A stretch of 63,975 nucleotides of DNA, filler included, from Fonticula-like sp. SCN 57-25 (Eukaryota), in the NCBI GenBank assembly GCA_001724245.1. It is 3 parts of 3 records of this genome, joined end to end, with 100 filler letters (N's around TTAATTAATTAA, not from the genome) between each part and the next. Parts side by side here need not be neighbours in the genome. Positions count along the whole stretch, not along the records: positions 1 to 23,332 come from MEDX01000070.1; positions 23,433 to 46,458 come from MEDX01000071.1; positions 46,559 to 63,975 come from MEDX01000115.1. One strand, written 5' to 3'. Numbering within the stretch: position 1 is the stretch's first letter; every line of letters starts with the position of its first letter. The position numbers and the translations under genes were made by a program. Under the pieces are notes generated by a model, which searched no databases, was not told where the DNA came from, and saw only the letters and a list, made by a program, of their open reading frames with translations. Below, in pieces: positions 1 to 63,556 of the stretch.

Positions 1-970
1 ACCGATACGACACAAAAATACACTAAAAGACATCAAAATAACATGAAAATGACACTAAAATGACACTAAACCACTCACAATAAACACAATAAATATCACC
101 ACACCACTCACTTGCTGTACCACCATCATCATAAACATTGCTGCACCGACTGTTCTTTCCCTTCCCTTCCCTTGTCTCCCCTTCCCTCCCACTGCCGCTC
201 GCACCCTCGTCCTGCAGGAGGTCCTTGAGTGTGCGCCACGCGTTCTTGGACTCGCCGCCGGACTGAGTCGACACGCGCGTGTTCACCACCCAGATGGGGT
301 TGGTCAGAACAGTCGTGATCACGCCTGCGGCAAGGTTAAATGGGTTAGTAAAGTGATGAAGGGGAGAATTACATCATCAATTACGTCATCATCAACATAC
401 ACCCGTTAACATTATCATATTCACAGTAACATTGCCGTATCGAAACATTCACGGCATCCATACCAAACACAAATCCACCCACACAGCATCATATCCCTGC
501 CATCCGTACCAGCAAAGGTGCCGACGACGAGACCGTCCAAACTGGTCAGATTCCGCGCAAGTTTCTTCACTGCAAACGCCTTGGTCGCCTCATACGAGTA
601 GAAAAAGATGCCCTGCGTCACAGCCACGCCAAACAGCGCCGATCCTATCCCGCTGCAGGCAACAACATCAGCAACAATCGGGGCGATCGGGGGGTGATGA
701 CGTACGCGTATAGAGGCGCAATGCCGTCGCGGCGAAACATCTCCATCAGGGAGTCAAGTGCGCCCTTGCGTGTGTCGAGCTGCTGAAGGCGCGTCGCGAG
801 ATTGAGCAGCGGGTACGTCAGGCCGGTGGCAATCACGCCGCCACCGGCGCCTAATCGTGGCAAAAAAGAAAACTGTGGTTAATACAAACGTACATATGGC
901 AGCCACAATACAGTTAATCTAAAGCGAACGAGCGCGCACCCGACAGCAGATGCGCCAGATTCTCGCTCAT
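1..970 (-). CDS. Mitochondrial-carrier-family protein, peroxisomal PMP34/SLC25A17/PMP47-like; spliced, 3' end runs off the window
   Basis: Joined exons from ATG 970: MSENLAHLLSGAGGGVIATGLTYPLLNLATRLQ...GIGSALFGVAVTQGIFFYSYE...GVITTVLTNPIWVVNTR. Has carrier helices and the TNPIWVVNTR motif typical of PMP34/PMP47. Confidence 0.8.
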
Positions 971-1016
971 AATGTCCAAAATGCGTCGTCGGCAACAATG
1001 GTGGTCAAAACGAAAC

Positions 1017-1050
1017 GGCGGGAAAAACGGCCGCTTGTTTGATCACGTGA
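1017..1050. promoter_or_regulatory. Candidate elements in the 117-bp bidirectional spacer: GGCGGGAAA (E2F-like) and palindromic E-box TCACGTGA
   Basis: GGCGGGAAA at 1017-1025 and TCACGTGA at 1043-1050, between divergent ATGs at 970 and 1088. CACGTG also occurs in the Hsp10/Hsp60 and Msh6/Cox10 spacers. Confidence 0.4.
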
Positions 1051-1087
1051 CCGCGTGCGTCGTTGGCTGCACGGGGATTGCGTCGTC

Positions 1088-2822
1088 ATGGCGACCAAGG
1101 CAATGATTGAAGAGTCTCTGGACCTCGAGGGTGCGCTGCTCGCCGCATTATAGTGCCATGCTTGTTCTAACCGTATCTTTTTGCTTGCAGAGATCGACGA
1201 GTGCATGTTTCGGAGCAAGTCGCTTTGGAAGCCGCTCGGTGCGCGCGGAGTGTTTGGCGGCCAGGTGGTCGGCCAATCCCTCGTCGCTGCGATGCGCACG
1301 GTGAGCGAGAAGCTTTCCGTGCACGCGCTGCACTCCTTCTTCCTCCTGCCGGGCGACTCGACGCGCCCGATCATCTACCAGGTGGCTCGCCTGCGCGATG
1401 GTGCGCATGCGGCAAGACGGCCAGTGATTGCCATGCCGGGATTGCTCACGCGTGTCTGCATCAGGTAACAGCTTTGCGACGCGCAGTGTGACGGCCGTGC
1501 AAAAGGGCCGCGCCATTTTTACGTGCCAGATCTCGTTCCACGTGGCGGAAGAGTACTACCTCGAGCATCAGGTACGCGCGGCATCATGGCCATGTCATGT
1601 CTCTCACCATGCGTCATGAACATCGTCCTTCTTCGTCATCCATAATATTTGCCCCACCACTTGCTTTCTTTGTGATCCCTGCTGCCATCTTGCGATCCAA
1701 CGCGTTGCACATCACCCGATCGCCGTGATCCCCGCAGTCCAAGATGCCCCCCGCCCCCCCGCCAGAGTCGGTCCCGAACGAGACCGAGCGCCTTCAGGAG
1801 ATCCTCGCCGACCCGCGCTTCCCCAAGCGCTCGCGCGAGTGGCTCGAAAAGCTCATGAACCAGGTGCGCATCGCCGCTTTTTTCGTTCTGTTCCTTCTTT
1901 ATGCCTTCTTTGTGCCTTCTATGTGTTGCTTGACCACCTTTGAACTACACTTCACCTGCCTTGACACCGTTTTGACACCGTTGACTCACGATAAAATCCG
2001 CATGCGTTTTGCTTGCGATTTTCTTATGCAATTAGCCTCTTCCAATTGATATTCGCATGTGCGACATGGGCGACCCGTTCGCCCCCGTGACGCGCGACCC
2101 CGTCCGCCAGATGTGCTGGATGCGCGCCAACGGCAAGCTCGGCGACGACCCGAACCTGCACCTCGCCGTGGCGGCGTACGCGAGCGACCACAGGCTGCTC
2201 ACGACGCCGCTGCTCGGGCACGGAATGTCCAACTTTAACAGCGGAGTGAAGCTCATGGCGTCGCTCGACCACTCGATGTGGTTCCATGCGCCGTTCAGGT
2301 GCGCGGGAAAATGTTGGAAGGAGGTGTGGCTAACGAGGTGTGGCGGTGATGGTAGGGCGGACGACTGGCTTCTCTACGAGTTTGACGTGCGTTTTCGTGG
2401 TGAAAATGGAGTGGAAATGCTGGGCAAAGTGGGCTTTATGCTCATTTATTGGGTTCATATCTGTTCCATATTGTCGCGTAGTTTGACTGGGTTTGACATT
2501 TTATGATAGTTTTTGGCTGTTTTTTGACACTTAAAAGTGGTTTTTGTTACATTTGTATTAGTTTTGTACTCACGTCTCTTGTGCTTGCAGAGTCATCGCA
2601 TGGCGGGAAACCGCGCCCTCACGTTCGGCAAGGTGTACGACAAGGATGGGCGCCTCGTGGTACGACTCCTTGCCCATTCTCCCCTTTCTTTTCTTTATTC
2701 TGTTCATTGCTGATTGGTCTGTTTAGGTGTCGGTGGCGCAGGAAGGTCTCATTCGGCTGGAAGAGTCGTTTGCGCAAAAGCACACAGGGCAGGCGACGGC
2801 GCGCAAGATGGCCCGCTTGTAA
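1088..2822 (+). CDS. ACOT8: Acyl-CoA thioesterase II (TesB/ACOT8/Pte1) with C-terminal PTS1 (-ARL)
   Basis: Motifs GVFGGQVVGQSL, HALHSFFL, RLRDGNSFATRSV, AYASDH, ASLDHSMWFH, RADDWLLYE, VSVAQEGLIR. The last exon reads ...ARKMARL* (TAA 2820-2822). Confidence 0.92.
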
Positions 2823-3136: not shown

Positions 3137-6100
3137 ATGGCGTCTTCGCCGGACCCGTTCTCTGCCAAGGCGCAGCAGCTGAGCGATCCAAAGCTGCGTA
3201 CGTACCTTTAACGCGGTTTTAGCTTTTTTTTGATATTAATATTGACCATGCTTTTTTTCCTCAATCCTTTCAGCCATTGAAAAGCAGCTGCAGATCACGC
3301 TCGGGATCCGCGATCAGATCGAGCTGATCCAGAGCAATGATTACCCTTTATTCTTAAAGGCATTCCTTCCCGTGTTTCTTCGCATTCTTCGCGAGGTCCG
3401 CATTCAGTTTGTGGACAACACGCCCGAGCAAAAGCTCCGCAATACGGTCCTCGAGATCATCAACAAACTTCCTTCGTACGATGCGCTTCGTCCGCATGTG
3501 CCCGAGCTCGCGCGCGAGGTGATGCGCCTGCTCGAGAACGAGAACGAGGACAACGCGGCCGTGTGCCTTCGCATCATCATTGAGCTCCACAAGAACTTTA
3601 GGTCGCCTGCGATTCTCGAGGATCAGGTGCAGCCATTCTTTGAGCTCGTCCAGCGCATGTACAGGAACCTGCCGACATCGGTCCGCGTCATCATCGACAA
3701 GCACCCGGCGGAAAAGGTAACGAAACGAACGCATTTATATTTGAAGAAACGAAGAAGAGTCTTTTTGTGTGTTTTTGTGTGTTTCTTGAATCTTTTGTGG
3801 GGAATCATCGTGATCATCCTTGATAAAACGGGATCACTTTTGAATCCATTTGAGTTAAAAATTGAGCTCGACATTGGTTTCTTGAGCCAGTTTATGTCAT
3901 TTTAGTGTCATTTTTGTGCCAATTTTCCTCTTTTTCCTCACTTTCTCACCCCCCTCCCTCCAGGAATCTCCGTACGTCGGCGCCGTTTCGCCGCCGACCG
4001 CGCCCGCGCCCGCCGCCAAGGACGGCAAGGCCGCCCCCGACGCCAAGGCCGAGCCCAAGCAGCTCATCCGCAGCATGTTTTCCTTCAAAGTTCTCACCGA
4101 GTGCCCGATCCTGATCGTGCTGCTCTTCCAGCTCTACGCAAAGTTTAGCCAGACGCACCTGCCGCAGTTTGTGCCGCTCATCATTGGCGCGCTCAAGCTG
4201 CAGGCCGAGGCGCAGGAGCGCATGCACAGGGAGAACCCGCACTCGGTCGGGGTCAGCCCGGCGGTGCAGGACAAGGTCGCGTATGGCGACTTTATCGGCA
4301 CGCAAGTGAAGGTACGAAGAGGAGAAGGAGAAAAGGAAAATTAGTGAAAAATTAGTGAAAAATGAATGGAAAATGAGCGAAAAATGAGTGGAAAATGCGC
4401 TTTTGTTTTATTTAGGCTCTTTTTGTGTCACTTTTTGTGCTCTTATCCGCCACTTTCCCATCACTTTCGCCTTTTCTAACGCATTTTCCAGACTGTTTCC
4501 TTCCTCGCGTACACCCTTCGCAGCTCCCTTCAGCTGCTCGCGCCCTACCAGGCACAAATCCCCGTCTTTGTCATCCAGCTTTTGCGCAACTGCCCCGCCG
4601 AGGCGACCGCCACGCGTAAGGAGCTGCTCGTCGCCACGCGGCACATTCTGCTCGCGAACGAGTTTAGAACGGCGTTTATGCCGCACATTGACGAGCTGCT
4701 GCAGACAGAGTACATTCTCGGCACAGGACTGACGTCGCAGCAGACCCTCAAGTACGTGTTTATTTTTGGTTAATTTTGACCACTTTTGTGCACTTTCTCT
4801 CATTCTGTGACACATTTGTTTCATTTTGTGACACTTTTCTGCAACGTGTCTGCCTTCCCCCCCTCTTTTCTCCGCCTTTCCTCCTTCTCTAACCCCCTTT
4901 CCAGGTCCCCTGCCTTCAGCATCTTTGCTGACCTTTTCCACCACGTCCGCTCCGAGCTCAAGCTCCCGCAGCTCATCATGACCGTGTACATTTACACGCG
5001 CAATCTCCACGACACTTCCCTCGCCTTTAACACGCAAACAATGTCGGCCAAGCTTCTCATCAACCTTGTCGAGGCGATCCGCAAGGGCGAGCACGACCGC
5101 GCCGACCGCCGCCACCTCCTGCTGCGCATCCTCACGGCGTTTGCCAACAAGTTTACGGCGCTCAAGAACCAGATCCCGGCGCTGGTCGCGCAGAGCAAGC
5201 GTGCGAGCGAGGCGCGCGAGGCGGGCGACGACGGCGCTGCTGGCGGGGCGGCGTCGACTTCGGCGTCGGCTGTGGCGGCCGCAACGCCGCAGGCCGGCGC
5301 GGCGTCTTCGTCGGCGGCCGACGGCACCGAAGCTTCTTCCGATGCTGCTGCCGCCGCCGCTTCCTCTTCGGCCGGCGCGTCGGACGCCACGGAAGACTTT
5401 GAGATTCTGTACACGCCGCCGATCCGCACGAACGCGACGGCGAATGACGGCGGCGCCGACACGATCAAGGAGGCGCGCTTCCTGTTCCGCACGCTCGTGC
5501 TGGGCCTCAAGAACATTGTGCTCGGCATCGCGTCCATGTCGCCGCCGCCCGCCGTGCAGCAGCAGCAGGCGCAGCAGCAGGGCCAGATGCAGGGTCAGAT
5601 GCAGGGCCAGATGCCCGGTCAGCAGATGCAGGGGCAGATGCAGGGCCAGATGCAGGGCCAGATTCAGGGCGGGTTTGTGTCGGGTGGCGGCGTGGATGTC
5701 GACCTGTACATCCGGATGCTGCGCGACGGCCTGTACTGCTTTGATATCTACCTTGTGAACAAGGATGATAGCGGGAAGCGCGAGGGCGAAAAGGACGCGC
5801 TGGACGGCTTTGCGGCCGTGTTTACGGTGGTCGACCCGGCCATGTTTCAGGACATTTTCAACTCGCAGATGCAGTTTATCTTCCAGCGCATCATTGACAA
5901 CCAGCTCATCCTCACGATTATTCAGCACTTTTTGGCCAACCCGGGCGTGACGCGCACGTTTGCCGAGATGCTGCTGCGCTTTTTGGTGGACCGGTTGGAC
6001 ACGCTGGGCGAGCCCGAAAAGACGACGAGCGTGATGCTGCGCCTGTTCAAGCTTGTGTTTGGCTCGGTGGCGCTGTTTGCCGACGTGGCGGGCAACTCGA

Positions 6101-9100
6101 ACGAGCCCGTCTTGCAGCCGCACCTCGGGACGATCATCCGCACGTCGCTGCGGATGGCCGCCAAGGTGCGCGAGCCGCTCAACTATTTTATGCTGCTGCG
6201 CGCGCTCTTCCGCAGCATCGGCGGGCACAAGTTTGAGCTGCTCTACAAAGAGTTTTTGCCGCTGCTGCCCGTGCTGCTCGAGAGCCTGAACCGTCTTTTG
6301 ACGACGACGCACAAGCCGCAGATGCGCGAGCTGTTTGTCGAGCTGTGCCTGACGGTGCCCGTGCGCCTGTCGGCGCTGCTGCCGTTCCTGCACTACCTTA
6401 TGCGGCCGCTTGTGCTCGCGCTGCAGGCCGGGCCGGACCTCGTGAGCCAGGGCCTGCGCACGCTCGAGCTGTGCATCGACAACCTGACGCCGAGCTTCCT
6501 CGACCCGATCATCTCGCCCGTCATCCACGACCTCATGGAGGCGCTCGGCAAGCATCTCAAGCCGCTGCCGTACCACACAAACCACAGCCACACGACACTG
6601 CGCATTCTCGGCAAGCTCGGCGGGCGCAACCGCCGCATGCTAAAGGACCTGCGCGCGCTGCCGTTCCAAGAGTTTGTCGAGCCGGGCATCGCGCTCGAGT
6701 TTGAGTTTACCGATGGCTCGTCGCTGGCGCTGCCGCTCGAGCCGATGGTGCATGACGCGCACCGCTGGCTGCTCACGGGCAAGGACCCGGCGCGCCGCGC
6801 GCACGCGGCGCTCTTCCTCCGCAACTGCCTCATCATGCTCATCGACGCGTCGACAGGTACCGAGCGGCTCGCCACGGCCACGTACGAGGCGGTCCGCCGC
6901 GCGGCCGACGGGTCGGCGCAGCCGGTCAAGCAGGACGCGCGCAAGGCCAACGAGCGCGACAAGGTGCCGCACCACCTGCGCATCATCAACAAGCCGGTCA
7001 AGCTCGCGCACGACAAGGTGCTCGAGTCGCTGCTCGTGAGCGCGCTGCACGCCGCGGTCGTTATTGAGGAGGAGGACATGAGCGCCGAGGACGCCGCCGC
7101 CATCAAGGCCGCCGCCGCCGAAGCGCAGCAGTTCCTCGACGTGATCGCGCGCCAGTTTGCGTTTGTCAAGGTGGCCGAGGTGACGGCGCGGCGCCGCAGC
7201 GACCAGGCCAAGCCGCTCATCCTCGACACGGACATGTTCCTGTCGGCCATCGTGACGGCGCTGAGCAGCACCGAGCGCCGCTTTGCCGAGACGGTCGAGC
7301 GCACGCTGCGCATCTTTACAGAGTCGTGCGAGACGCTGCTCGGCTCAAAGGTGCTCGTCGGGCGCCTGCCCTTCTTTGACAGCCTCGCGTCGCGCCTGTG
7401 CGCCGCGTCGTACGAAAAGGAGATGAACAGCAAGACGGGTGGCAGCCTCGGCATCTCGATCGTGACGTCGCGCCTCGACCTGGGCGTCGGGTGGCTGCGC
7501 CGCCACGAGCTCAAGTTTGTGCGCGCTCTGCTGTTTATCCTTCGCGACCTGTCGACCGACATCAACACGGGCGTCGGCGAGGAGACGCAGGCGACGCTCA
7601 GCCACATCCTCAAGGTGTGCAACAAGCCCAGCGACGACGCTGAGGAGCAGGGTGCCGAGGTGCAAAAGCTCTTCCAGGAGCTCATCAAGCTGCTCATCTC
7701 GGAGCTGTCCAACTCGAGCAGCATCGTGCGCTCGACCGTGCGCGCCAGCTTCCAGGAGCTCGCCGACCTGTCGGGCAGCGAAGTCACCGAGCTGCTCGAG
7801 CCGTGCAAGGAGCGCGTCGTGCAGCTTATTGAAAACTCAAAGAACTTGCGAACGCTGCCGCTGCCGATGCAGGTCGGGCACCTCGAGGCCATCTCGTTCT
7901 GCCTCTCGCTGCGGCCGCCGATCGTCCAGTTTGACAACAACCTCACCAACGCAGTCGTCAAGATCCTCAATGACACGCTTGTCGTTGTTGAGAACGATGA
8001 CGCGGTGCCGCCCACCAAGACGCCCGGCTACAAGAACCACGCGCACTATATGCCGCTGCGCGTCGCGAGCGTTGAGTGCATGACGGCCGTGATGAACTGC
8101 TCCGACTTTCAGCATCAGGACATGCGCACGCGCGTCATCCTGGCCTTTTTCAAGGCGCTGTCGCAGACGTCGCCCGAGGTCGTCGAGGTGGCCAAGAAGG
8201 GCCTCGCGCAGGTGCTTGCCGTGTACAAGCTGCCCAAGGACCTGCTGCAAAACTCGCTGCGGCCCGTGCTGCTCAACCTCGCCGACCACAAGAAGCTCGA
8301 CGTGAACATTCTGCAGTCGCTCTCGCGCCTGCTCGAGCTGCTCACCAACTGCTTCAACGTCAAGCTCGGCGACACGCTGCTCGACCACTGCCGCAAGTTT
8401 GCCGAGGCGGCGCTCGCGCGCATGCTGACCGAGCACACGCTGCCCGACCAGCGCGAGATTGCCATTGTGACGGCCATCCTCGAGAACCTGCACCTGCTGC
8501 CCACCATGGCCGTCAAGCTGCTCGAGCCGATGGTCGCCGTCGTGCTGCAGCTCGAGCAGACGTACCGCCGCGAGGCGTCGTCCTCGTTCCGCCTGCCGCT
8601 CATCAAGTTTGTCAACAGGTACCCGACCGAGTCGGTCGAGTTTATCTTTCAGCGGCTGCACCTCAACGACTATGCGCGCCTCTTTTTCGCCGTGCTCGAC
8701 TCTGACCAGGCCGAGCCGGTGCGCGCCGAGTTTTTGCGCCACCCCGACCTTGTCCTGCAGACATGCCTCGCGGAAGGTCTGTCGCCCGAGCACCTGCACA
8801 ACGGCGTCCGCATCGTGCGCGCGCTCGTGGCGCACGAGCCCAAGTGGCTGGTCGAGAACCGCGCCATCCTCGATGCGCTGCTGCGCATCTGGCGCCAAAA
8901 GTCGCAGCAGCTGTACGCGTCGCCCAAGAACGGCGCCGACGACGCGGTGCAGCTGGCCGTGCTTGCCGAGGCCGAGTGCCTGCTCGAGTGCTTCATTGCC
9001 TACTACCGCGCCGTACCGACCGAGGTGGACCTCATCTTTGAAGTCGCGGCCGTGTTCAGCCAGCCCGTTATGATGGACGTGAGCTTTGCGCGCCGCTTCC

Positions 9101-12100
9101 TGTTCAACGACGTGGCGGCGCAGTCTTCGCCTGCGCACAAGAACCTCCTGATGCACCGCTTCCTAGCGCTTTACAAGGACGAGGCCGTACCGGACCGCCT
9201 CAAGACGATCGCGCTGCAGATGGTGATTGTCCCCATGCTTGTCTTTTCGCACCGCGCCGGCGAGCAGCTCGCGACCATCCTGGACCGCGAGGTGCTCGCC
9301 GAGGTGCACCGCGACCTCATCCTGCGCGTCGCCGAGCGCGAGCCTGGCCAGGGCGAGGGCCTCTGCGTCGAGGTGCTCCAGCTGCTCACGCTCATCGTGC
9401 ACGTCGCGCCGTCGCTGCTGCACGACCACCGCCGCGACCTCATCCGCCTCGTGTGGAACCTGCTGCGCTTCGAGGACGTCACCGTGAAGCACTCTGCCTA
9501 CGTGCTTGTCGCGCGCTTCATTGAGGCGTACGAGTCGCCGGCGGCGCTCGTGAACCAGATGTTTGCGCAGCTGCTGCGCGCGCACCAGCCCGAGGCGCGC
9601 ATTCTCGTCAAGCAGGCGCTCGACATCCTCACGCCCGCACTGCCCAAGCGCACCGCGCCCGAGCCGGGCCAGCGCCACCCGAACTGGATGAAGCTCATCC
9701 GCCGCACCATCATCGACGAGGGGCACCTGCTGCCGCAGCTCGTGCTCATCTGGCAGCTGCTCATCCGCCACGCCGACCTCATGTACCCGTACCGCGACCA
9801 GTTTGTGTTCCAGATCGTGCACTCGATCACGCGCATCGGCTTTACGATCGCCGAGAACCGCAAGCTGGCGATCGACCTTGCCGAGCTCATGCTGCGCTGG
9901 GAGAAGCGCCGGATCAGCGCCCGCGGCGCGCGCTCTGACGCCATGGAGGTGGACTCTGCACCGAGCTCGGGCCAGAAGCACCGGGCGGCCGACGAGGGCA
10001 CGCCCAGCGAGCACATGGCCAAGCGGTTCAAGAACGAGTTTGGCTCGCCAACGTCGCCGCTGCTCGGCACGCCCAGCACGCCGACGACGCCCAGCATTGG
10101 TGGCGCCGCTGGGGATGCAGAGCACCGCCTGCCGACCGTGTGCATCGAGACGGTCATCAACTACCTCATCCGCCTGTCGTGCACCTTTGTCAACGCGCAG
10201 GACAAGAAGACGCTGCTGCCGCGCTGCCTCGACCTGCTCACAGACTACCTTAGCCAGGACCTGTCGGGCGAGGTCAACATCAAGCTCGTCTACTTTGAAA
10301 AGATCCTCGGCGCGCACGAGCTGCCCAAGGACACAGGCATCATCGTGACCGCGCTGCGCCTGCTGCGCATCATCTTTACGAGCCGCCAGCCGGTCTACTT
10401 TGTCGACAACTTTGCGCTCGTCGCAAAGTGCCTCGACCGCTTCCTCAACTGCGAGCTGCCGGTCGTCGTCGACGAGGTGCAGCCGCTCATGGGCACCATC
10501 TTTTCGACGCTCGCCATGGTCGAGCAAAACATGTCGACATCGGGGACGCTCTCTGAGGAGATGCGCGCCTTCCAGGCCGAGGCGCAGACCTTCCGCGCCC
10601 GCGTCGACGAGTCGGTCCACGCGTCGCTCCAGTCGCACCGCACGCTTCACAGCGCCGTGTCGCTGTTGTCAGTGCAGCAGGAAAAGGCCGTTGACCGCTT
10701 CACCAACCTGCTTGTCCGTACGCTCAGCCGCACCGCGCAAGAGTACATTTCGTTCCTCGTGAACGCGCCGGCTGCCAACGCGGCGGCGGCAGCCTTTGCG
10801 CAGGCGCACACGCCCGCGCCGCCGGCGAACGCGCCAGGCGTCCAGGGCGCGATGCCGCACCAGCACGGCGGCGCTCCCGGCATGCCTCAGCAGCACCAGC
10901 AGGGCCAGCCCCCGCCTGTGAACCCCTTCGTGCTCCAGGCAGGCATCCCCAGCACGGGCCCCGCGCTGCTCGAGCTGCTCGTCAACTGCATCTGCTCGCT
11001 GCTGCGCCTCCTGCGCGGCCGCCTGCACCTCATGGGCGACCTTCGCAAGCTCTTTGTGAACGCGCTCGCGGTTCTCGTCGAGCGCAACACGGACGCCGAG
11101 ATCCTCAACACGGTCTTGTCGATCGCGAGCGGCTGGGTGGCCTCTCCGCAGGAGACGTACCCGACGCGCCGCGAGCAGACTTCGGTGCTCGTCAAGCTGA
11201 TGGTGCTGGAGCGCCGCGGCGATGACGCGCTCACCGAGCAGTACCTGCAGCTCGTGCGCCGCGTGTACGAGGAGCCGCAGCTCAAGGGCACCGAGCTCAC
11301 CGCCAAGCTCGAGCCGGCGTTCCTGCTCGGCCTTCACTGGAAGAACGCTGCTCTGCGCGCGTCCTTTGCGGCCATCTACGACGCGTCGGTCGGTCGGTCG
11401 CCGTATGAGCGGCTGTGCCACCTGCTCGCTGTGCAGGACTGGCAGACGCAGTGCACGCTGTACTGGATGGAGCAGGTGCTCGACCTCTCGCTGGCCATGT
11501 TCAACCCCGACGCGCCGCTGCGCCTCTCGCAGGACGGCGTGCGCACCATGCCCATCTCGTACATTGAAGAGTCGGTGCTTGACGACGACGGCAACATTGT
11601 CGACGTCATGGACGACCGTCCCGAGGCGGTGACGGCGCGCATGCAGTCGTTCGTGAGCGCGCACCAAAAGTCGCTGTCCGAGTGCTGCTCCATCACGGCC
11701 GCGTCGACGCTCTCGTCGCTGCGGTACCTCATCTTTGACAACCGCGCGGTGGCGCAGCGCATCTGGAGCGACCTCTTTGCGCTTCTGTGGGCGCGCTTCT
11801 CTGCCGACGAGCAGCGCGACATTTCGAGCGTGCTCGTGCAGCTGCTGTCCAAGGAGTACCACCTGTTCCAGCAGACGATGCGGCCCAACTGCATCCAGGC
11901 GCTGCTCGAGGGCGTCATGAAGTGCAGCCCGCCCGTGCAGCTGCCGCCGCAGCTCGTAAAGTACCTCGGAAAGATGTACAACGGCTGGTTCACGGCGATC
12001 GAGATCTTGCAGACGTACACGGTCGGCCACAGCGACGTGACCGACGACGGCAGCGACGTGACGACGCAGCGCCTGGGCGGCATGTCGCTCTCGTCCTCTG

Positions 12101-28666: not shown

Positions 28667-30510
<1,844 letters not shown>

Positions 30511-34383: not shown

Positions 34384-34609
34384 TTAAATGCTAAAGTGGT
34401 GCGATTTTGAGGACGACGTCGATGGTGCCGGGGATGCTGGCCGTGCCGGCGCATCATCAGCCTCGCCTGCACCCGAGGGGGCCGGCGCCTCCTTGTCGTC
34501 TGCGCCGGATGGGGCCGGCAGCGTCGGGAAAACAGGAATGGGCTCGTCGGGGGCCGACAAGCTCTGGCCGGCCGCAGGAGACGCGCTGCCGATGGCCGCT
34601 GGCGACGTT

Positions 34610-34648
<39 letters not shown>

Positions 34649-48160: not shown

Positions 48161-48248
48161 TGAAAAAAGCAAAGTAAAATCGCATGCGATTATTGAGACT
48201 TGGTCACGTGCCGGTTGTGCTGCGTTGTTAGACTTCTTCCGAGCACCA

Positions 48249-51321: not shown

Positions 51322-52586
51322 ATGGAGGCGCCGCGCGTGTTCGCCGTCGAGGATGGCTGGGCGGGCCTCGTCCGCTGCCAGGGCCGGCGCTTTTGGGCGA
51401 GCGTCGCCATGAAAAACGGCGAGGCAAAGCTTTCTATGGAGGCGGAATTGGCGCTTTTGTTGCGAGGACAGGAGGGGCTCTTACAACAGGTACGGCCGCC
51501 GTGTTTGAAAGTGTCGCTCACGATGCGCAGCGACTGGTAAACAGTGTTGACTTTGATGCCTTTTTGGTCGAGTTGACGGAACTGGCGGACCGTACATTAT
51601 CACCGCTGCCGTCGGTGGGAGCAATGACTGCGCCGCCGCTGCTCATCCTCCGGCTTATACCCGAGCTCGATGCCGTCGGGTGGGATCGCGTCGAAATGGG
51701 CGACGCCCAACTGCAATCACTTTCGCTACGCAGCACGGATGCCGGCGGGCGCGAGCATTTGCTACACATTTCCGTACCGCTTACCTACCCCAACGCTCCA
51801 GTGCGCCTCGCCTTTCTGTTTATCTTGTGCTAACAAGAACCTCGCAGCTGGCATGCCGGTCGCAAGTGCCCGATTCCACGACGGAAACGTGGCCGGCCGC
51901 AAACATCGCCGAGGCTAATGAGACCTTTTCGCGCCAGTTGAAAACTTTTCAGCGCTTCTGGAACGAGCTGGACGAGCTGCACGCGCGCTGCTGGGTGCTG
52001 GAGCCGCAGCGCGATCAGCGCGACCGGACCATGCTTCGCGTCGCTGTGGACCAGACCGTCTCGGTGCAGCTCCTGCTGGACGCGAAAGAGCCCACGAGCC
52101 TTCCTTCCATCCGCTTCCTCGGGCCCGACGTCTCGGTCGGCCCCCTCAAAGACCTGCTTAACAAGAACATTAGCGCGTGGAGCCGCGCCCTGTCCGTGCG
52201 GGCAAACCTCGAGGCCTGCCTGGAGCGGTCGCTGCCACCAAAGCCGTCTGCCACGGACGCGTCGGCCGCTCTGCTGCAGATGGAGTGCGCGGTTTGCTAC
52301 GCGTTCCACTTGGGCGACGAGATGCCGACAAAGTCGTGCAACAATGCGGCGTGCGGCCGGTCGTACCACCAGACCTGCATCGCAGAGGTGCGCCTCGGCA
52401 ATATATTGGGAATTTGATGACTTAATTATTTATTTATAGTGGCTACGCGCATTGCCGTCGACGCGCGTGTCGTTCCAGTCGCTTTTTGGTGCCTGCCCTT
52501 ACTGCCAAGAGGTACGAATTTGCTGTTTCTGGCCTCGGCGCTGACAACCATGGTAGCCAATCAACGTCCAGCTCGCCCTGGCCTAA
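51322..52586 (+). CDS. FANCL: Fanconi anemia E3 ubiquitin ligase FANCL
   Basis: ELDAVGWDRV, DAGGREHLL, FWNELDELHARCWVLEP, FLGPD..V, WS...SV..NL, RING ECAVCY...CNNAACGRSYHQTCIAEWLRALPSTRVSFQSLFGACPYCQEPI. Confidence 0.93.
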
Positions 52587-53036: not shown

Positions 53037-56000
53037 ATGGCGATGAGGCGCGCGGCTACCTTCGGGTTGCTCGTCGCCCTTTTGGCCGTGTTTGCGGGCT
53101 CTTCGCTAGGTGCGCCTTGGGTTTGATCTATTTTCTAGTGGTTTTCTCACGACTTTCCTTGTCTTCTTGGCGGGTTTGCCTTTCTCTTCACTTGCAGTCG
53201 AAGCAGCCGGTTCAACTGTGCCGCACTGCAAGACCTACAATTACGAGCTGCAAGTCGACTACACGCAGTGCCTGTGGACTGGCTGCGAGTCGGGCGGCTG
53301 CCCCAGCGATGGCAACACGTACACCAAGATGTGCGAGTCATGGCCCTGCACCGAGTGCACGGTAAACGGTCAGTCGAGCGGCACCCGCTGCTGCCTCTTC
53401 TACCAGGATGCCTACTGCTGCAAGTGGACCAACCAAATCAGCACCTGTAACACGTGCGAGGACGGCTACGCCCTCCAGAACAACGTTTGCACTGGTACGT
53501 TTTTGCTTTCTTTCTTCCATGGGCGCTGACATGGCGCGCGCGCAAAGACATCAACGAGTGCGCTGCCGCGACCCCGCCTTGCGACTCCCACCGCGAGTGC
53601 GTCAACTCGGCCGGCGGTTTCTCGTGCCTTCCCTGCTCGAGCGGCTACAAGGACAATGGTCCTTTTGGCTGCTCGGCGTGCGAGGCCGGCACCTGGGGCC
53701 CGCAGTGCGTCAATAACTGCACCTGCACGCAGGGCGCTTGCGACATTGTGACTGGCGCCTGCCTCTGCGAGGACGGCTGGTACGGCGATGACTGCACCGA
53801 GACCCAGTGCGGCGACGGCATGATCCGCGGCGACGAGGAGTGCGAGAACCTCTCGGACTCTTGCTGCGACCAGGTCACCTGCAAGTTCAAGGTCGCCGGC
53901 TCTGCCTGCGAGTCCGACTCGAACCGCTGCACCATCGATGTTTGTGAGAGCTACTCGGGTGTCGGCTCCCAGACCGTTTGCACGCACAACGTCAACGCGA
54001 CCGAGTGCTTCTGCGGCAACAACGTTGTCGATCCCATCGGCGAGACCTGCGACGAGGGCAACCTTGTCACGCCGCCGTGCCCCTACGGCGAGGAGTCCTG
54101 CGTCGTTTGCAGCGAGCTTTGCCAGGCCACCAACGGCACCACTTCGTATTGCGGCGACGGCGTTCTCCACGCCGACAATGGCGAGCAGTGCGACGACGGC
54201 AACTCGCTTGACAACGACGGCTGCTCCTCGACCTGCACCAAGGAGCCCGGCTTCAAGTGCGTCAACGCCGGCGAGGCTTGCTCTGCGTGCAGCCTCCTCG
54301 ACCCGCGCTCGTACGGCATCGACTGCGCGCTGACCTGCACGGTGTGCTCCAACAACGCGACCTGCGGGAGCGTTGACGGCTCCTGCATCTGCCAGGCCCC
54401 CTGGATCGGCACCACGTGCACGAACCTGCCGCGCCCCGGCACCACCGACGTGACTGCCATCGTTCCGACCACCATCCAGGTTGACGACCGCGCCATGTTT
54501 ACGCTCACCGGCGCCTTCCCGTCGTCCTTTAGCAGCTTTGCGTTCGTGCCCACGACCATTTCCAGCAACATTTGCGATCGCGCCAACATGCTCGGCGTGT
54601 CGCAGTACGAGACCGAGTATGCGCAGATGAGCAGCGCGCTCGCCAACGCTGGCACCTACCACGTGTGCTACTCGACCAACCCCTCGGACGCGTCGTACGT
54701 GCACCAGGTCGGCCTCGTGCTGAACGTGACCGCCAAGACCGCCACTGAGGGCTCCATCACGTCGATCGCGCCCTCGACCGTCAGCTCTGGCCGCCAGCCG
54801 TCGATCACCTTCAACGGTGCCATCCCGTCTGCCCAGACCTACATTGGCTTCTCCAACGACGGCTGCGGCACCGTTCACCTCAAGACGGCCATTCCCCAGG
54901 GCCTCACCCGCCCGCCGACCGTCAAGGTTGGTCCGTTCGAGTCGGCCGTCATGCCCGACGGTCCGTACACGACCTGCTACTCGGTCGACGACGGCGTGAT
55001 GTGGTCGCCGCAGAGCACCCCGGCCGCCACGCTGACGATGCTCACGTCGACCCCGAACGAGCTCGTTGTCACCGCCATCAACGGCGCCACCGACGTCTCG
55101 TTTGTTATCGGCGAGACCGTCGCCCTTGACCTGACTGGCCCCACCCCGAACCCCGTTAGCCTTATCGGCCTGACCAAGTGGCCGTCGTACAGCTGCGGAT
55201 CGCCCGACTTTGTGACCACGTATGACAACCCGCCGGTCAACATTGGCACGTTCAGCACCTTTGATGCTGGCCTGTACACGCTCTGCTACTCGGCCAACGG
55301 CGACTCGTCGGCCTACACGAACCAGGCCCTCGTTACGGTCACGGCCCTCGCGCCCGTCCCGACCGCCACGTCAATCTCCAACATTGTGGTTGGCGGCGGC
55401 ATGCCCGCGATCATGACGACCGCCATGGCCACCGCCACGATCACGGCGCTTTCGTCGACCTCGATCCAGCTCGTCGGCCTGACCCCGTCGCCGACGACCA
55501 TGATTGCGCTCGTGCCGACCGGCTCGGTCAACTGCGACGCGAACCGCGTGTCGGAGACCCCGGTCCCCGGCCCGACTGACCTTGTCACGATCCTCGTCTC
55601 GACCGCCGGCGAGTACAACCTGTGCTACTACACTGGCACCGCCGGCTCCTCGTGGGTGATGCAGACCAGCGTGTCGCTCGAGGTCCTCCCCGCCGCCGCC
55701 TCGGGCTCGACCATCTCGTCGATCTCGACCTCTGGCACCGTCCCCGCCGCCGACGCCATCTACGCCGGCGTCTCTGCCTCGTTCGTGTTCAACGGCGGAT
55801 CGCCGTCGACACACACTGTCGTCGCCTTTGTCCCCGGCGACAAGACCTGCGCCGATGCGTCGGATATCTGCCCGCCCAACCTTACGGGCAAGTACTGCCA
55901 CATTGACTCCCCCGACACGCCCAACCCGGTCCCCGAGGGCGAGTTCCCGCTGTACGCCAAGGGCCTCTACGCCATGGCGCCCGTCTCGCTCGTCGACTCG

Positions 56001-58585
56001 CGCATGGTGGCCGGTGAGTATGCCGTCTGCTACTCGACCGACGATGGTGTCACGTACACGCAGCAGGACGCGTCGCTGCGTCTCCGCGTGCTCGCCCCGC
56101 CCGCCCAGGCCGACAGCATCTCTGCCGTCTCCCTGACGTCGTACATTCGTGGCGCGACCGCTGATGCCACGTTCACCGGCGCGATGGCGTCGCCGCTCAC
56201 CTACGTTGCGTTCTCGCGCGACTCGTGCGCGACCGTTTCGTCGCAGACCTTGCTCAGCACCTCCAACACGGTCTCGCTGACCGTCCCCGCCGCCGCCGAC
56301 TCGTGGACTGTCTGCTACACCACGTCGATCTCGAGCGGCTGGGTCGCCCAGGGCGTCTCCATCCTGGTGCTGCCCGTCCCGGCGTCGACCACCTCGGTCA
56401 CGTCCGTGTCGCCCAACACCGTCTTTGTTGCCGACTACACCGTGACCCCCACCTTTGCCCTCCTCGGCGCCGACAAGTCCGCCACCTCCAAGTATGCGCT
56501 CACGCGCACGACTGATGGCTGCGCCGCCGCCGAGACCCGCTTTGCCGTGTCGGACTATGGCCTCACGTCGCAGCAGCTGAGCGCGCCGCTCGGCCGCCTC
56601 ACTGGCGGCACGTGGTATGTGTGCTACAGCACGGACAGCGGTGCCACATGGTTCCAGCAGGCCACGGGCTCGATCGTCGTGCGCCCGGCGCTCACCGACT
56701 CGGACGTCCAGATCACTGAGGTGTATGACCGCTTCTACAGCAACACGACGAGCGGCGAGATGATGGCCGGCAGGCCCGTTCTCCTTGACTTTGTCCCGCT
56801 CATGCCGTCGCCGTTCACGGTCGTCCGCATCTCGATCACGGACGACTGCGCCGGCTCGGCTTCGACCACCGTGCCGTACACCACCGAGACGGTCCTCGTC
56901 CCCGGCTTTAACGTGGCCGCCGACGTTGTCCGCATGTGCGTGTCTGTGGACGCTGGCAACACCTTTACGCCCCAGAACCTGCGCTTCTCCGTGTTCCCGC
57001 CCGAGGCCACCCCGACGACGATCACGTCCATGTCCAGCTCGTCGTTCAACAGCGGCGTGCCTACCACGGCGATGACGCTGAGCCACAAGTCGGCGCCGTT
57101 CGTCTCGTTCAACGGCGCGTACCCGTCGCCGCACACTGTGCTCGGCTTTGTCCGCACCGGCGACGACTGCGACCCGCAAAAGTTTGTGCCGATCACTGGC
57201 GGCCCCGTGTTCGCCGTCAACCTGACCGCGACGCCCGTCCCGCTCTTTGGCCAGGACATTGCCGGCTCGTACGAGCTCTGCCTGACCACCGCGCGCGGCG
57301 GTGTCGGCGCCCTCTTCAAGCAGACTGGCCTCACGCTGACGGTCGTCCCGGCGACCGCCACGCCCGGCGAGATCACCGCCCTCAGCCCGATGCACTGGAT
57401 CGTGCAGCAGCCCAACGTCACCGTGACCATCACGGGCGGCCTTCCGTCGACGCTCTCGCGCTTTGGCGTTGTCCTGCCGACGGCCCCGAACTGCTCGCCG
57501 ACCAACTTTATCACGTCGGCGCTGTTCACGTCCCGCAACGTTGTCTTTGCCGCCAGCCTCCCGTCGGCCGGCACCTACCACCTGTGCTACTCGACCAACA
57601 ACGGCGGCTCCTACATTGCCCAGACCGCCGTCACCATCCAGGGTGTCCGTACGTAGAGTGTTTTTTGTTTGGAGGCGCGGTTTGGTTTATCTAACTTTTG
57701 TGCGTTTTCGCAGCTCCGCCGTCGACCGCCACGACCGTGACTGCTCTTAGCCCGCCGTGGATCAATGCCGGCAGCGCCTTTACGATGAGCTTTATCGGCG
57801 TGATCCCCTCTGCGCAGACGTACGTTGGCTTTGTCAAGATGGGCGAGCCGTGCTCTGCCGCCCAGGGCCTTCGCTACGCCGAGTCGGCCGTCTCTTTCGC
57901 CGCGATTGACACTGTCGGCACGTACGAGCTGTGCGTGTCGACCGGCGTGGACTCTGGCTCGTTCATCAAGCAGACGCTCGTCACTCTCGAGGCGCGCGTG
58001 CCGCCGGCGTCGGGCAGCTCGATCTCGCAGATCTCGCCGCGCTCGGTCATTGCCGGCGCCAGCGTCGAGATGACGTTCTACGGCTTTGTGCCGTCGTCGT
58101 CGAGCAAGGCGGGCTTTATTGTGACTGAGCTCAACACGCCGCCGACGTGCTCTGACAAGAACAAGATCATGAACGTTGTCGACCTGAACAAGCTGTCGTC
58201 GTACGACCTGCCGACGCCGTTCGAGTATGAGAACAGCGTGTACCGCGTGTGCGTCTCGGCCGACGGCGGCAACAACTACGTCCTGCAGACGAACGCCCTC
58301 ACGTACCTGAACGTGACGAGCGCCGCCAGCGTGCAGTACCTGCGCGACACGAGCGCGCTCGACGGCGTCTACATTGTGGCCGGCGTCTTCCTCGTCGTTT
58401 TCATCGCCGTCATCGTCGGCGCCGTGTACTACCTCAAGCACAAGAAGGACCAGGAGAACACCAAGCTGGCCGAGGACATTGTCGGCATGCCCTACACGAC
58501 GGCGAGCACCGCGTCGATCGACCAGATGATGACGTCCAACCCGCTCTACCAGGAGAACGCGCAGGTCGAGCACAACGACGAGTAG
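53037..58585 (+). CDS. Large type-I membrane protein: signal peptide, Cys-rich head, EGF modules, disintegrin-like and Cys-rich repeats, 12 x ~100-aa two-Cys domains, TM helix, NPLY tail
   Basis: Signal MAMRRAATFGLLVALLAVFAGSSL; DINEC...C.NSAGGFSC (Ca-EGF); CGDGMIRGDEEC...CC..TCK; CGDGV...GEQCDDGNSLDNDGCSSTC; repeated G.Y..CYS.D.G..Y..Q; TM GVYIVAGVFLVVFIAVIVGAVYYL then KHKK; tail MTSNPLYQEN. Confidence 0.85.
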
Positions 58586-59268: not shown

Positions 59269-60225
59269 CTAGGAGGATGCTTGCTTGCCTGGGGTCGGTG
59301 GCCCGTCTGCCACCTTGTCCCCTTCTATTGGCGACGACGTGCTGCCGCGCCGCGTCGGCAACGCGCCAGCCTCGTCCTTGCGGTCCGGCTTGGCCGCCGC
59401 CGCTGCAGCCGCCGCCGCCGCCGCCGCCGACACCTTGAGCGTGACGCCGACCGGGAGTGCCGCCGCTGGCGCGACGACCCACTTTTGCATCATCTTCTCC
59501 AGCTCGAGCTTTGTGAACGGCTTGGAAAGAAAGTCGGTGATGCCCGCCTCGTTGAGCGCGGCGTCGCACGAGCCCATTGCGCTGACGGCGACGATGACGG
59601 TGTTTTGGTTTGGGCCGATCTCGGTGCGGATGCAGCGCGTCGACTGCAGGCCGTCCATGATCGGCATCATAATGTCCATCAGGATGATGTCGTAGTGATG
59701 CTCGCGCGTAAAGCCGAGCGCCTCCTCGCCATTGTTGGCCATGTCGATCTGGCGGATGCCGAGGCGCTGCAGGAAAGAGTGCGCCACGCGGCGGTTGATC
59801 TCATTGTCCTCGACGACAAGGCAGCGGATCGCGTTGGGGGGGAAGGCGGGGACGGAATCGGCGGTGCGCGAGGAGGAGGGGAGAGCACTGCGGCTGCGGT
59901 AGGAGGAGGAGGACGTACGGCGCTGGTACGGTGAGCTGAGAGAGAAGATGTCAGCATCGGAATCAGGAGAAAAAACACACGACATCAGGGGAAATCACCA
60001 AAACCATCAACAGCATGACCATCGGCCATGCCCGGAATCAAGACACAAAAAAATATACACGAGAAAGAGGATCAACACAAGAGCAAAGCACTAAAAAAGC
60101 GGCCCAAAAGGCCACGTGGAAAAGCAAGGAAACAAAAGATGGCGCGTCATCATCCCTTCTCAATCACTCCCATCCCATCCTACCGAGTCCGCCGCGCACC
60201 TGCTTGGGTGTGTAGCCATCGCCAT
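59269..60225 (-). CDS. Stand-alone response regulator (single receiver domain)
   Basis: CLVVEDNEINRRVA...ANNGEEAL...YDIILMDIMMPIMDGL...IVAVSA...AGITDFLSKPF, with acidic pocket, phospho-Asp and Lys intact. Probable exon 1 MAMATHPS, spliced at AG|GTGCGC. Confidence 0.85.
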
Positions 60226-60930: not shown

Positions 60931-62215
60931 ATGGCAAAGTGGGGAGAGGGAGACCCGCGGTGGATCGTGGAGGACCGCCCGGACAGCACCAACGTGAACA
61001 ACTGGCACTGGTACGCGAGTATGTGCAGAGGGTGGCGGGCGATGCTGACGAGCGATGCGCAGGTCCGAGCTCAACTGCTTCAGCTGGGCGCAGACCTACG
61101 TCAAGGACAACCTCAAGGGGCTCTTTGTCCATGAGAATGGCCAAAAGGGCGATGTCACGTCCGTGTCGGACGTCAAGGGCGACGTGAGCATGGCCAACCG
61201 CAAGGGCAAGGTCCGCACCTTCTTTGACCTGACGCTCACGCTCGAGCTGGCCGGTGCGTGCTTTGACCGCGTGATGATCCCTGCTAACATGCCGCAGTAA
61301 TAATCGACGGCACGCCGCTAAAGACAACGCTCACGATGAACGACGTCAACCAGGACGAGGATGCGGACGACTACACCGTGCGCAGACCAGCATCCTCTTT
61401 TTTCTTTGTTTGCCTAACTTGCCGCCGTCATCAGGTCGACCTTTCGACTGCCGATGCCGATGCCGGCCAGAAGAAGAAGATCCGCGAGGTGGTCCGCGCT
61501 CTCCTCGAAAAGATCCACGACGTCCTCGCCGTGAAGATGCTCGCCGATCTGCGCGCCGTGCACGAGAAGAAGGTTCTCCTGCCGCTCGCCGAGGGCAAGA
61601 CGGCCAATGGCGCCGCACCCGCCGCCGCCGCGCCCGTCGCCGCCTCGTCGACCGCTTCGACCGCCGCCGCCGCCGACAAGACGCCCAAGGGAATCAAGAC
61701 GTCGACCGTCCGCCTCGATGTCGAGATGCTCGCCTCGTGCGTCCTGCTTTCCGCTCCTTTTCATGCATTACTAATGCTGTGTCATAGCGCCATGGACGTG
61801 TCGCAGGCGTTCACTGACCTGAACCGCGTGCGCATTTGGACCCAGAGCGACGCGACCGTGACTGCCAAGGCCAACACGCCGTTCTCCTTCTTTGGCGGCA
61901 ACCTCAGCGGCGAGATCCAGTCGCTGGACCCCGGCCGCTCGATCGTCATGTCGTGGCGCGTCGGCTCGTGGCCGTCGGGTACGCGCCCTTTTTGACTCTT
62001 TTGGCTGTGTTTGCTAACGGGACGGCGGCGCAGGACACCACTCGACCGTCACGCTGACCTTTGAGCAGGGCTACTCGAGCACCACGGTGCGCGTCGTGCA
62101 GGCCGATGTGCCCGCCGACCAGGCCGACAGCACCAAGATGAACTGGCACCGCATGGTGTTTGACCGCATGAAGCAGACGTTCGGGTGGGGCTTTGCGCAC
62201 CACGAAGAGTCGTGA
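60931..62215 (+). CDS. AHA1: Hsp90 co-chaperone Aha1 (AHSA1)
   Basis: MAKWGEGDPRWIVEDRPDSTNVNNWHW, NRKGKVRTFFDL and a C-terminal START-like domain (FSFFGGNLSGE...IVMSWR..SWPSGHHS). Confidence 0.96.
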
Positions 62216-62366
62216 GCGGCGCACCCAGACTAGATCACAGGCATCATCGCACCAGCCAGCAAAATGTTTTGAAAACTCTTTTTCTTGTCATTTCATTAAT
62301 AAACCACACATTTTTCCACAGCAAAAAACAACGACAGCAACATTATGTTCTAAAAGGGGCCGCCTC

Positions 62367-62790
62367 TTAAGCGGACACCGGGCGCTTGGCAATGTACACC
62401 TTGGAGTCGGAGATGGAGACGACCAGCTGGTAGTCGGCCATGACGACTAGGGTTGGGTGAGCTACAATGCGGGAAAGGAGAGGCAGCGTACTCGACAAGC
62501 GACGGAAGGCGTCGTTCTTAACAGAGGAAACAATGCGCTGGCTGCTCAGAAGCATGCTGTACACCGCGTCGGCCACCTTCTTGTCGTTCTCGAGCTCGCC
62601 GGTCGACTGATGCCGTGCGGTTAGAACCAGCAAACAGGGCACAACAGGATGCGTACCGAAAGAATGTCGCCCTTGGAGTCAAGAACCATCGTCCCCGTCT
62701 GGTCCGCAATGCCCATCAAAACATCGCTGTCAGCCTACACAAAGCGGGCGTCGTTAGCAAGCCGCGCGAAAGGGGGCGGCGGCGCACCAT
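62367..62790 (-). CDS. LAMTOR4: Ragulator subunit LAMTOR4 (roadblock fold); ATG-only first exon
   Basis: M-ADSDVLMGIADQTGTMVLDSKGDILSSTGELENDKKVA...AFRRLS.VMADYQLVVSISDSKVYIAKR parallels human IPDQLGYLVL...SSGDLENDE...FKRLSV...VFVVKR (recalled from memory). Confidence 0.88.
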
Positions 62791-62866
62791 TGTGCGACCG
62801 ATCCAACACCGCCGGAGCTCTCAGTATGTAAACTTTACCGAAACGCTGACACATCATTACATCGTG

Positions 62867-63556
62867 ATGGACCTTGCGGGCGTTCTGCTCGCGAAGGGCG
62901 GCCTTCCGAGCGATGTGCGCGTCGCTGTCGTCACCGACACGGCCGACGCAGAGGGCGCGTTTGTAGTACACGAGTGGCTTCAAGTGTGCCTGGCGAGCGG
63001 CATGCGCGCGCTTCTTTTCAACACGGTGAGCACGCATCGCTCGGCTGCGCTGCGCACCGCCGTGACGTCTGGGCTGCTCAGCATCGTGGACTGCACGTCG
63101 CTTTGGTATGATTCGGCGGCTCTTCTGACAACATTAAAGTCGCACGTGGACGCCTTTGTGGCGGGCGGCGAGTCCAAGCCGGTCTGCATCGCCATCGAGA
63201 GCGCGAGCCCTCTCTTGGCCTCCCTTGGCAGCGCCGGCGTCGAGGCCTTGATGCAGCAATGCGCCTTCGCGGCAAACAAAACCAAGGGCAACTTTGTCAT
63301 TGTGCTTCCCGTGGACACTGACCTCGCGGCAGAGTCGCTGAGCGTTGTTGCGGGCGCACTCCACGCGGCGGATCTGGTGCTCCAGGTTCGGCCGATGCCG
63401 AGCGGGTACTCGCCGCAGATCAACGCCCACCTCAGCATCATCACGCCGGTCGCGCGTCCGGCACTCAAGAATATTGCAGGTGACTTTCATGTGGTGCTGC
63501 GGCCGAATGCCAATGCGCAGCTCTACGCACGCGGCCACGCCAAGGGCATTCTGTAG
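62867..63556 (+). CDS. ELP6: Elongator subunit 6, intronless
   Basis: VTDTADAEGAFVVHEWL, IAIESASPLL, ADLVLQVRPMPSGYSPQINAHLSI and the C-terminal LYARG pattern of ELP6. Confidence 0.75.
   Translation: MDLAGVLLAKGGLPSDVRVAVVTDTADAEGAFVVHEWLQVCLASGMRALLFNTVSTHRSAALRTAVTSGLLSIVDCTSLWYDSAALLTTLKSHVDAFVAGGESKPVCIAIESASPLLASLGSAGVEALMQQCAFAANKTKGNFVIVLPVDTDLAAESLSVVAGALHAADLVLQVRPMPSGYSPQINAHLSIITPVARPALKNIAGDFHVVLRPNANAQLYARGHAKGIL

Follow-up and report, generated by a model that had tools for sequence, protein, structure and literature searches.

In the rows of Table S1 of PMC2871058 that are compared here, the share of adjacent genes lying on opposite strands is 63.2% for Cryptococcus, 64.7% for Monosiga, 65.8% for Cyanidioschyzon and 61.1% for Thalassiosira, and 55.9% and 50.5% for S. 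cerevisiae and Batrachochytrium, respectively. In Nannochloropsis gaditana most neighbours alternate, in runs of up to 15 genes, and the passages of PMC3566019 on this layout propose compaction or bidirectional promoters. In yeasts, the short mode of divergent spacers is read as one shared promoter, with lower limits of 78-255 bp, in the part of Chen et al. (2011, PMC3128071) dealing with spacer lengths. We address here the strand alternation of genes in a 63,975-nucleotide stretch of Fonticula-like sp. SCN 57-25 (assembly GCA_001724245.1), called the window below, for which an earlier note had claimed near-universal head-to-head gene pairing, often joining functional partners, and short bidirectional promoters used as two-gene regulons.

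Adjacency of functional partners has also been described. In the pair lists concerned, HSPE1/HSPD1 (Hsp10/Hsp60) are head-to-head from human to Capsaspora and fungi and HADHA/HADHB are a co-expressed pair in humans (PMC3514665), and nine fungi are listed as having a carboxyltransferase/biotin carboxylase pair in divergent orientation (PMC2871058 supplements). Adjacent co-regulated gene pairs of yeast occur in all orientations, in the sections of Arnone et al. (2012, PMC3500266) on gene order, and linked expression noise, with a co-fluctuation model, is a tested reason for partner adjacency in those of Xu et al. (2019, PMC6785257) on this question.

Our results show that the layout is a real, moderate and already described kind of genome organisation. 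The genome is gene-dense and has a moderate genome-wide alternation bias of about 64%; we consider it probable that minimal promoters are shared and that the window is a lucky stretch.

Strand alternation in the window and across the genome

The window consists of three contigs merely joined by linkers (C70 and C71, both whole, and the start of C115, all unlinked), and its real adjacencies therefore number 23. It is eukaryotic DNA with a G+C content of 59% and a median intron of 53 bp. Genes were predicted by a generalised hidden Markov model with equal strand priors, self-trained on the window and 740 kb of the genome, and the 27 models of the window become 26 genes, 11 on the minus and 15 on the plus strand, after joining the split TRRAP. 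With this orientation-neutral gene finder, all 11 minus-strand genes do have a plus-strand gene upstream and 22 of the 26 genes are paired, as had been claimed. The start codons of the 11 divergent pairs are 76-705 bp apart. All the ATG-to-ATG spacers listed earlier (Table 1) lie between CAT and ATG at the lengths given; seven come straight from the model and, for those of 198, 190, 524 and 705 bp, the model picked another ATG and the one of the earlier note was read by eye. The 190-bp spacer is confirmed because the 289-bp first intron of uS13 (31481-31769) is seen spliced, in RNA contigs from 2 of 3 runs; one eIF3d intron is supported by one run. These contigs, assembled from three public runs covering 8, 6 and 2 of 30 bins, were used for intron joints only.

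The junctions are divergent in 11 cases, convergent in 9 and tandem in 3, and neighbours thus lie on opposite strands in 20 of the 23 pairs (P=2.4e-4 under random orientation), similar to the chance of roughly 1 in 2^11 estimated before; simulation under random orientation gives P=7.5e-5 for at least 11 divergent pairs.

Outside the window, 980 kb were examined, about 10% of the assembly (9.51 Mb, 749 contigs), from long and mid-size contigs only. Sample 1 is made up of the complete contigs C1-C8, a 50-kb part of C15 and 10 kb from the start of each of nine more contigs; for the held-out sample 2, genes were predicted in the initial 20 kb of each of twelve mid-size contigs, the parameters being frozen. 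By hand curation, 8 split genes were joined (7 in sample 1 and TRRAP), 2 doubtful models dropped and 2 merged models separated. Names were given by Pfam, on single exons for 278 of the 390 models of sample 1 and the window and on the longest exon for all 116 models of sample 2. Gene density is one per 2.07 kb.

In this curated set, 285 of 443 adjacent pairs are on opposite strands (144 divergent, 141 convergent, 158 tandem), i.e. 64.3% (confidence interval 59.8-68.7; P=8e-10): checked against random expectation, the genome-wide divergent fraction lies above it. The bias recurs separately in sample 1 (107 divergent, 104 convergent, 126 tandem; 211/337, 62.6%, or 61% in raw uncurated models; P=2e-6) and in sample 2 (37, 37 and 32; 74/106 after one correction, raw tandem count 30; P=9e-6), and 111 of the 170 pairs with both genes named are on opposite strands. 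Pairing is nevertheless not near-universal, as 214 of the 340 genes of sample 1 (63%) have a divergent upstream neighbour, vs 22 of 26 (85%) in the window.

Measured against the genome's own 64%, the window gives P=0.015, and 149 windows should include 2.3 like it; among 110 overlapping stretches of 23 junctions slid along sample 1, the highest count, on C5, is also 20/23. At this rate, an alternating run of 19 genes should occur about 0.6 times in 4,600 genes if contig breaks are disregarded. The window is an upper-tail draw of a moderate genome-wide bias, and it overstates the orientation bias; a 64-kb window can thus make a moderate bias seem universal. The longest alternating run in the sample is 14 genes, alternation shows no autocorrelation along the contigs of sample 1 (P=0.29), and conserved (named) genes are not more often divergent than the others (156/243 vs 58/97, P=0.46).

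Spacers, motifs and probable shared promoters

Median spacers outside the window are 201 bp for divergent, 187 bp for convergent and 381 bp for tandem pairs, divergent spacers being shorter than tandem ones (P=1e-7, sample 1). The divergent ones peak sharply at short lengths of 50-150 bp: 59 of 144 are no longer than 150 bp, vs 7 of 156 tandem spacers, and these 59 pairs are about as many as the 66 by which divergent pairs exceed the chance number. The predicted tandem median is 226 bp if gene ends are unshared and 452 bp if opposite-strand neighbours share them; the observed one (378 bp, sample 1) is nearer the latter.

Words in the spacers also sort by orientation. CCAATCA, words which we take to be E2F-like, CAGTTTGC and TCACGTG are found in divergent and tandem spacers and are rare in convergent ones (1/108 for TCACGTG), in sample 1 and again in sample 2. 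TGTACA and AATACA are words of convergent and tandem spacers and are nearly absent from short divergent ones, as was seen again in held-out sample 2; AATACA occurs in 0 of 72 short divergent vs 54 of 108 convergent spacers. Across the genome sample, CAGTTTGC(A) recurs often on the promoter side, and TGTACA and AATACA do so at 3' ends. Promoter words are no commoner in short divergent than in tandem spacers (11/72 vs 29/122 for CCAATCA), which fits one promoter and not two. TCACGTG was tried as a mark of bidirectional promoters and rejected: 19/72 short divergent vs 10/122 tandem spacers carry it in the discovery set, and 4/21 vs 5/27 in the held-out one. It is here a general promoter motif, also present in tandem spacers and not specific to divergent ones.

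Short divergent spacers, as delimited by predicted starts, are likely single shared promoters. This reading agrees with that given for short divergent regions in yeasts (PMC3128071) and in Nannochloropsis (PMC3566019). The earlier proposal of short bidirectional promoters is supported in that short divergent spacers look like single promoters, with about one promoter's worth of motifs, but not as to two-gene regulons as the rule. If confirmed, the spacers of 76-200 bp would be very small natural two-way promoters.

As the convergent excess necessarily equals the divergent one, orientation counts alone cannot single out promoters. The bias could come instead from the 3' side or from tandem avoidance, through read-through or promoter occlusion, head-to-head pairs being an arithmetic by-product. 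The near-equal numbers of convergent and divergent pairs (141 and 144, equal by construction) agree with this, and so do convergent spacers as short as divergent ones, with at most one TGTACA in 70 of 73 short ones, and the near absence of tandem spacers under 150 bp (7/156). We nevertheless hold it to be unlikely, given that the short divergent mode at 50-150 bp matches the excess in size and that, of the 6 strict partner pairs (defined below) counted in the samples and the window together, 5 are divergent and none is convergent.

Functional partners and proposed explanation

A pair was called strict when its two products either belong as subunits to a single enzyme or chaperone machine or act in successive steps of one pathway, as judged from established biochemistry. 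Among the four pairs of the window described as coherent, Hsp10/Hsp60 and P4-ATPase/Cdc50 are strict, but uS13/eIF3d and carrier/thioesterase are linked only loosely. Outside the window, strict pairs amount to 3/144 divergent, 1/158 tandem and 0/141 convergent pairs, which does not bear out the statement that divergent pairs often join partners. The proportions are 1/58, 1/59 and 0/53, respectively, for the sample-1 pairs with both genes named; since only part of the pairs are fully named, unnamed genes could hide a few more partners. The strict share of the window (2/11 vs 3/144 divergent pairs outside, P=0.04) shows that it overstates functional coherence as well as orientation.

Three of the strict pairs outside the window are divergent: isocitrate lyase/malate synthase (C1 13516-17708, 780 bp apart), PCCA/PCCB, i.e. 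propionyl-CoA carboxylase alpha/beta (C64 3904-8150, 213 bp, with two TCACGTG between), and a stand-alone ABC ATPase with an UPF0014 FetB-like permease (C66 14709-16805, 245 bp), a bacterial-type split transporter matched at family level. The fourth, HADHB then HADHA (C4 13642-18120, 433 bp apart), is tandem; an SCP2 gene lies two genes upstream of it. IP3 receptor/phospholipase C, on C34, is divergent by position and strand and falls outside the unbiased sample. Four strict adjacent pairs in 443 adjacencies compare with 0.06-0.49 expected if each gene has an assumed 1-5 partners (P<=0.002).

Could bidirectional promoters co-regulate partners as a rule, and so drive the orientation bias? These divergent pairs, together with Hsp10/Hsp60 and P4-ATPase/Cdc50, and the excess of four strict pairs over 0.06-0.49 expected, speak for it. 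However, 141 of the 144 divergent pairs outside the window have no strict link (in the window, 2 of 11 have one), HADHB/HADHA is tandem, and subunits of complexes are dispersed: proteasome genes (7 loci on 7 contigs), CCT genes (6 on 6) and MCM genes (4 on 4) never share a contig with a family partner (0/17), eIF3 a, d, g and i are on four contigs, and RPA1/RPA2 as well as eRF1/eRF3 lie apart. With only these 7 proteasome, 6 CCT and 4 MCM loci found, in a search that gives lower bounds, the assembly looks incomplete. Histone-fold loci are on 6 different contigs, one of them at a contig edge, and a search for succinyl-CoA ligase gave one locus only. No named partner adjoins the ETF, Ku, glucosidase II beta, prenyltransferase beta, RAI1, PAN2, Dcp2, FANCI, Rad4 or SRP68 genes, a few of whose neighbours are unnamed. 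Loose links are also present in convergent (RPS26/eRF3) and tandem (Rad21-Rec8/SMC4) pairs, and no motif proved specific to paired promoters, the TCACGTG enrichment being lost in the held-out set. The Rad21/Rec8 kleisin and SMC genes (C6 24402-30557) had been considered as a cohesin pair, which was rejected, the SMC being SMC4 (condensin). Two-gene regulons are thus largely refuted as the rule, and we regard this explanation of the bias as very unlikely.

One tentative possibility is that, in this lineage, both genes of an obligate two-part enzyme or of a two-step pathway are placed under a common bidirectional promoter much more frequently than in other eukaryotes, an arrangement that would stand in for bacterial operons. 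The set would comprise Hsp10/Hsp60, PCCA/PCCB, the FetA/FetB-like pair, isocitrate lyase/malate synthase, IP3 receptor/phospholipase C and the eukaryote-born P4-ATPase/Cdc50. Of the five strict pairs other than P4-ATPase/Cdc50, four have bacterial counterparts, groES-groEL, aceB-aceA, fadI-fadJ and fetA-fetB, that are presumably operon neighbours. A literature search did not find PCCA/PCCB head-to-head and gave, for isocitrate lyase/malate synthase, work on bacteria only; the latter pair was not seen in the 2 places covered of the 4 that name malate synthase in the PMC2871058 supplements. If this possibility were true, new partners could be sought among the unnamed genes lying head-to-head with those of heterodimer subunits, and the single Cdc50 would mainly serve the flippase with which it is paired.

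The few true partner pairs are the lasting lead, above all the flippase gene head-to-head with that of its Cdc50 subunit. No other CDC50 locus was found in the assembly, and this Cdc50 gene faces one of at least 6 P4-ATPase loci; the nearest solved relative of the P4-ATPase that it faces is Drs2. A Cdc50 exon best matches Fonticula alba (55% identity), then fungi, which hints at an opisthokont on the fungal side. P4-ATPase was found in 0 of 80 metagenome Cdc50 loci, of which only 20 have at least 2 kb upstream and none is shown to be a close relative. The head-to-head arrangement was found neither in a full-text literature search nor in the supplements of PMC2871058 as far as these were covered, the 595 conserved animal pairs of PMC3514665 lying outside the comparison; the sole CDC50 row in the covered supplements pairs CDC50 with a kinase. 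The pair seems unreported.

Shared minimal promoters under a moderate bias remain our preferred explanation. A short divergent spacer would be one minimal promoter firing both ways and a convergent spacer one shared 3'-end zone; with promoters and 3' ends shared, alternation would therefore save about 190 bp per junction. A pair on a common promoter of 60-200 bp would be hard to break or invert, whatever the gene functions, so that most pairs would join unrelated genes. True partners, mostly two-subunit enzymes, make up about 2% of divergent pairs and, by analogy with published yeast and animal work, would probably be kept since linked expression steadies the subunit ratio.

Several points weigh against this explanation. 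The opposite-strand rate ranges from 0.43 to 0.79 per contig (chi-square P=0.064) and the orientation of the window differs from that of the rest of the sampled genome (P=0.04), so that there may be domains of stronger alternation. Strict pairs lean towards divergence (3/144 vs 1/299, P=0.10, or 0.017 when the selected window is counted too). The gene models are our own hand-corrected predictions, on about 10% of an incomplete assembly and on long and mid-size contigs, and if all 84 predicted introns of at least 200 bp are taken as hidden gene borders, the rate falls to 54% (P=0.03); taking only the 6 of them with a 3'-end motif gives 63.5%. Finally, shared promoters are read from spacer lengths and motifs, rather than from transcription-start or expression data. 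That the window would be a chance stretch of a genome with random gene orientation, or that gene prediction produced the pattern, is hardly credible: the window was chosen after the fact and merges, such as a three-gene model on C66, do hide tandem pairs, but the bias repeats in two samples and in named pairs (111/170), survives the worst-case merge correction just given, and goes with spacer motifs whose distribution by orientation does not depend on the coding model.

Gene content of the window and comparison with described genomes

Table 1. Features of the window, with coordinates counted along the whole stretch; spacers are ATG-to-ATG.
Feature	Coordinates	Strand	Pair	Spacer (bp)	Remarks
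Mitochondrial-carrier-family gene	121..970	-	1	117	3' end uncertain near contig edge
TCACGTG in spacer 1	1043..1049	.			More copies at 28565-28571, 48204-48210
TesB/ACOT8-type acyl-CoA thioesterase	1088..2822	+	1	117	Ends in ARL
TRRAP/Tra1	3137..16206	+			Tandem, unpaired
Ribosomal protein eL20 (L18A)	16497..17557	-	2	198	First exon read by eye
C-terminal Myb-domain protein	17756..19632	+	2	198
Arf/Sar-family GTPase	19851..20654	+			Tandem, unpaired
MINDY deubiquitinase	20772..22193	-	3	155
SPFH/flotillin-like gene	22349..23332	+	3	155	Cut by contig end
Artificial N-padded linker C70/C71	23333..23432	.			No biological adjacency
Furry/MOR2-PAG1	23470..27757	+			5' part missing
Hsp10	27990..28494	-	4	175	Strict partner pair
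Hsp60	28670..30510	+	4	175
uS13 (RPS18)	30931..31772	-	5	190	ATG-only first exon; loose link (translation)
eIF3d	31963..33883	+	5	190
P4-ATPase	34384..39628	-	6	524	Best PDB match Drs2; 572 from next in-frame ATG (39580)
Cdc50	40153..41583	+	6	524	Strict partner pair
DEAH helicase	41928..45448	-	7	139
GIT/Spa2-homology-domain gene	45588..46458	+	7	139	Cut by contig end
Artificial N-padded linker C71/C115	46459..46558	.
MutS-family gene	46559..48120	-	8	128	Cut by contig start
UbiA prenyltransferase	48249..49661	+	8	128
D-2-hydroxyacid dehydrogenase	49812..51243	-	9	78
FANCL	51322..52586	+	9	78
Large cysteine-rich EGF/DUF4215 membrane protein	53043..58585	+			Tandem, unpaired
Stand-alone response-regulator receiver gene	59269..60225	-	10	705
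Aha1	60931..62215	+	10	705
Small gene, no Pfam hit	62367..62790	-	11	76
ELP6-like gene	62867..63556	+	11	76

Several genes of the window (Table 1) are presumably of a narrower type: Prp22/DHX8 for the DEAH helicase, MSH6 for the MutS-family gene, COX10 for the UbiA prenyltransferase, SerA for the D-2-hydroxyacid dehydrogenase and, more tentatively, LAMTOR4-like for the small gene of pair 11. The carrier of pair 1 may resemble the PMP34/PXN subtype: Pfam and Atlas give the carrier family only, homologue searches with single short exons matched nothing, and PMP34 was not retained. The terminal ARL of the thioesterase is, by its consensus, presumably like PTS1 (peroxisomal targeting signal type 1).

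The product of the gene at 53043-58585 has 1,778 residues and a single membrane pass, with EGF and DUF4215 repeats at its front, and neither the residues encoded by 55350-57149 nor the last exon has a Pfam match. Two repeated units occur in the 705-bp spacer, one of 16 bp with copies at 60695, 60719 and 60780 and one of 18 bp with copies at 60820 and 60858, together spanning 60695-60875; neither recurs elsewhere in the 1 Mb examined. The eL20 gene has a three-codon first exon followed by an intron of about 410 bp (both within 17135-17557), and uS13 a 289-bp intron after its ATG-only exon (both within 31481-31772); these long ribosomal-protein introns may hold small nucleolar RNAs.

Elsewhere in the genome, C4 33713-44200 carries five related genes in a tandem array, each of about 320-400 residues and without Pfam match. 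Two genes have bacterial-type Pfam matches: an intronless ATP-grasp gene like D-Ala-D-Ala ligase (C1 53912-55234) and an IucA/IucC siderophore-synthetase-like gene (C61 13604-15600). C15 1-50000 has 0.72 introns per kb, vs 2-3 in most other long contigs, with the same codon bias, and is either an intron-poor region or DNA of a different source in the bin.

How this genome compares with the systems described at the outset can be stated for those parts of each source that deal with neighbouring genes. Among yeasts (PMC3128071), the short mode of divergent spacers is shared with this genome; it coincides there with the tandem peak but lies here at about one third of the tandem median. Convergent regions, much shorter in yeasts, are here as long as divergent ones. 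As with yeast regulons (PMC3500266), a minority of related genes adjoin, in any orientation, the co-regulation being measured there and inferred here. Hsp10/Hsp60 and acyl-CoA carboxylase alpha/beta are head-to-head here and HADHA and HADHB are neighbours, as in known pairs (PMC3514665, PMC2871058), but HADHB/HADHA is tandem here and divergent in the listed chordates (PMC2871058). The longest alternating run, of 14 genes, is close to that of 15 in Nannochloropsis gaditana (PMC3566019), a stramenopile alga in which one promoter is experimentally two-way, whereas two-way promoters are deduced here from spacers. Our figure, unlike those of PMC2871058, comes from predicted genes, from 10% of an assembly and from a different lineage. 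It is, at 64% opposite-strand with equal divergent and convergent counts, like the 61-66% of the compact genomes of that source, and it adds a protist lineage related to fungi and animals to the short list of genomes with an alternation bias of 61-66%.

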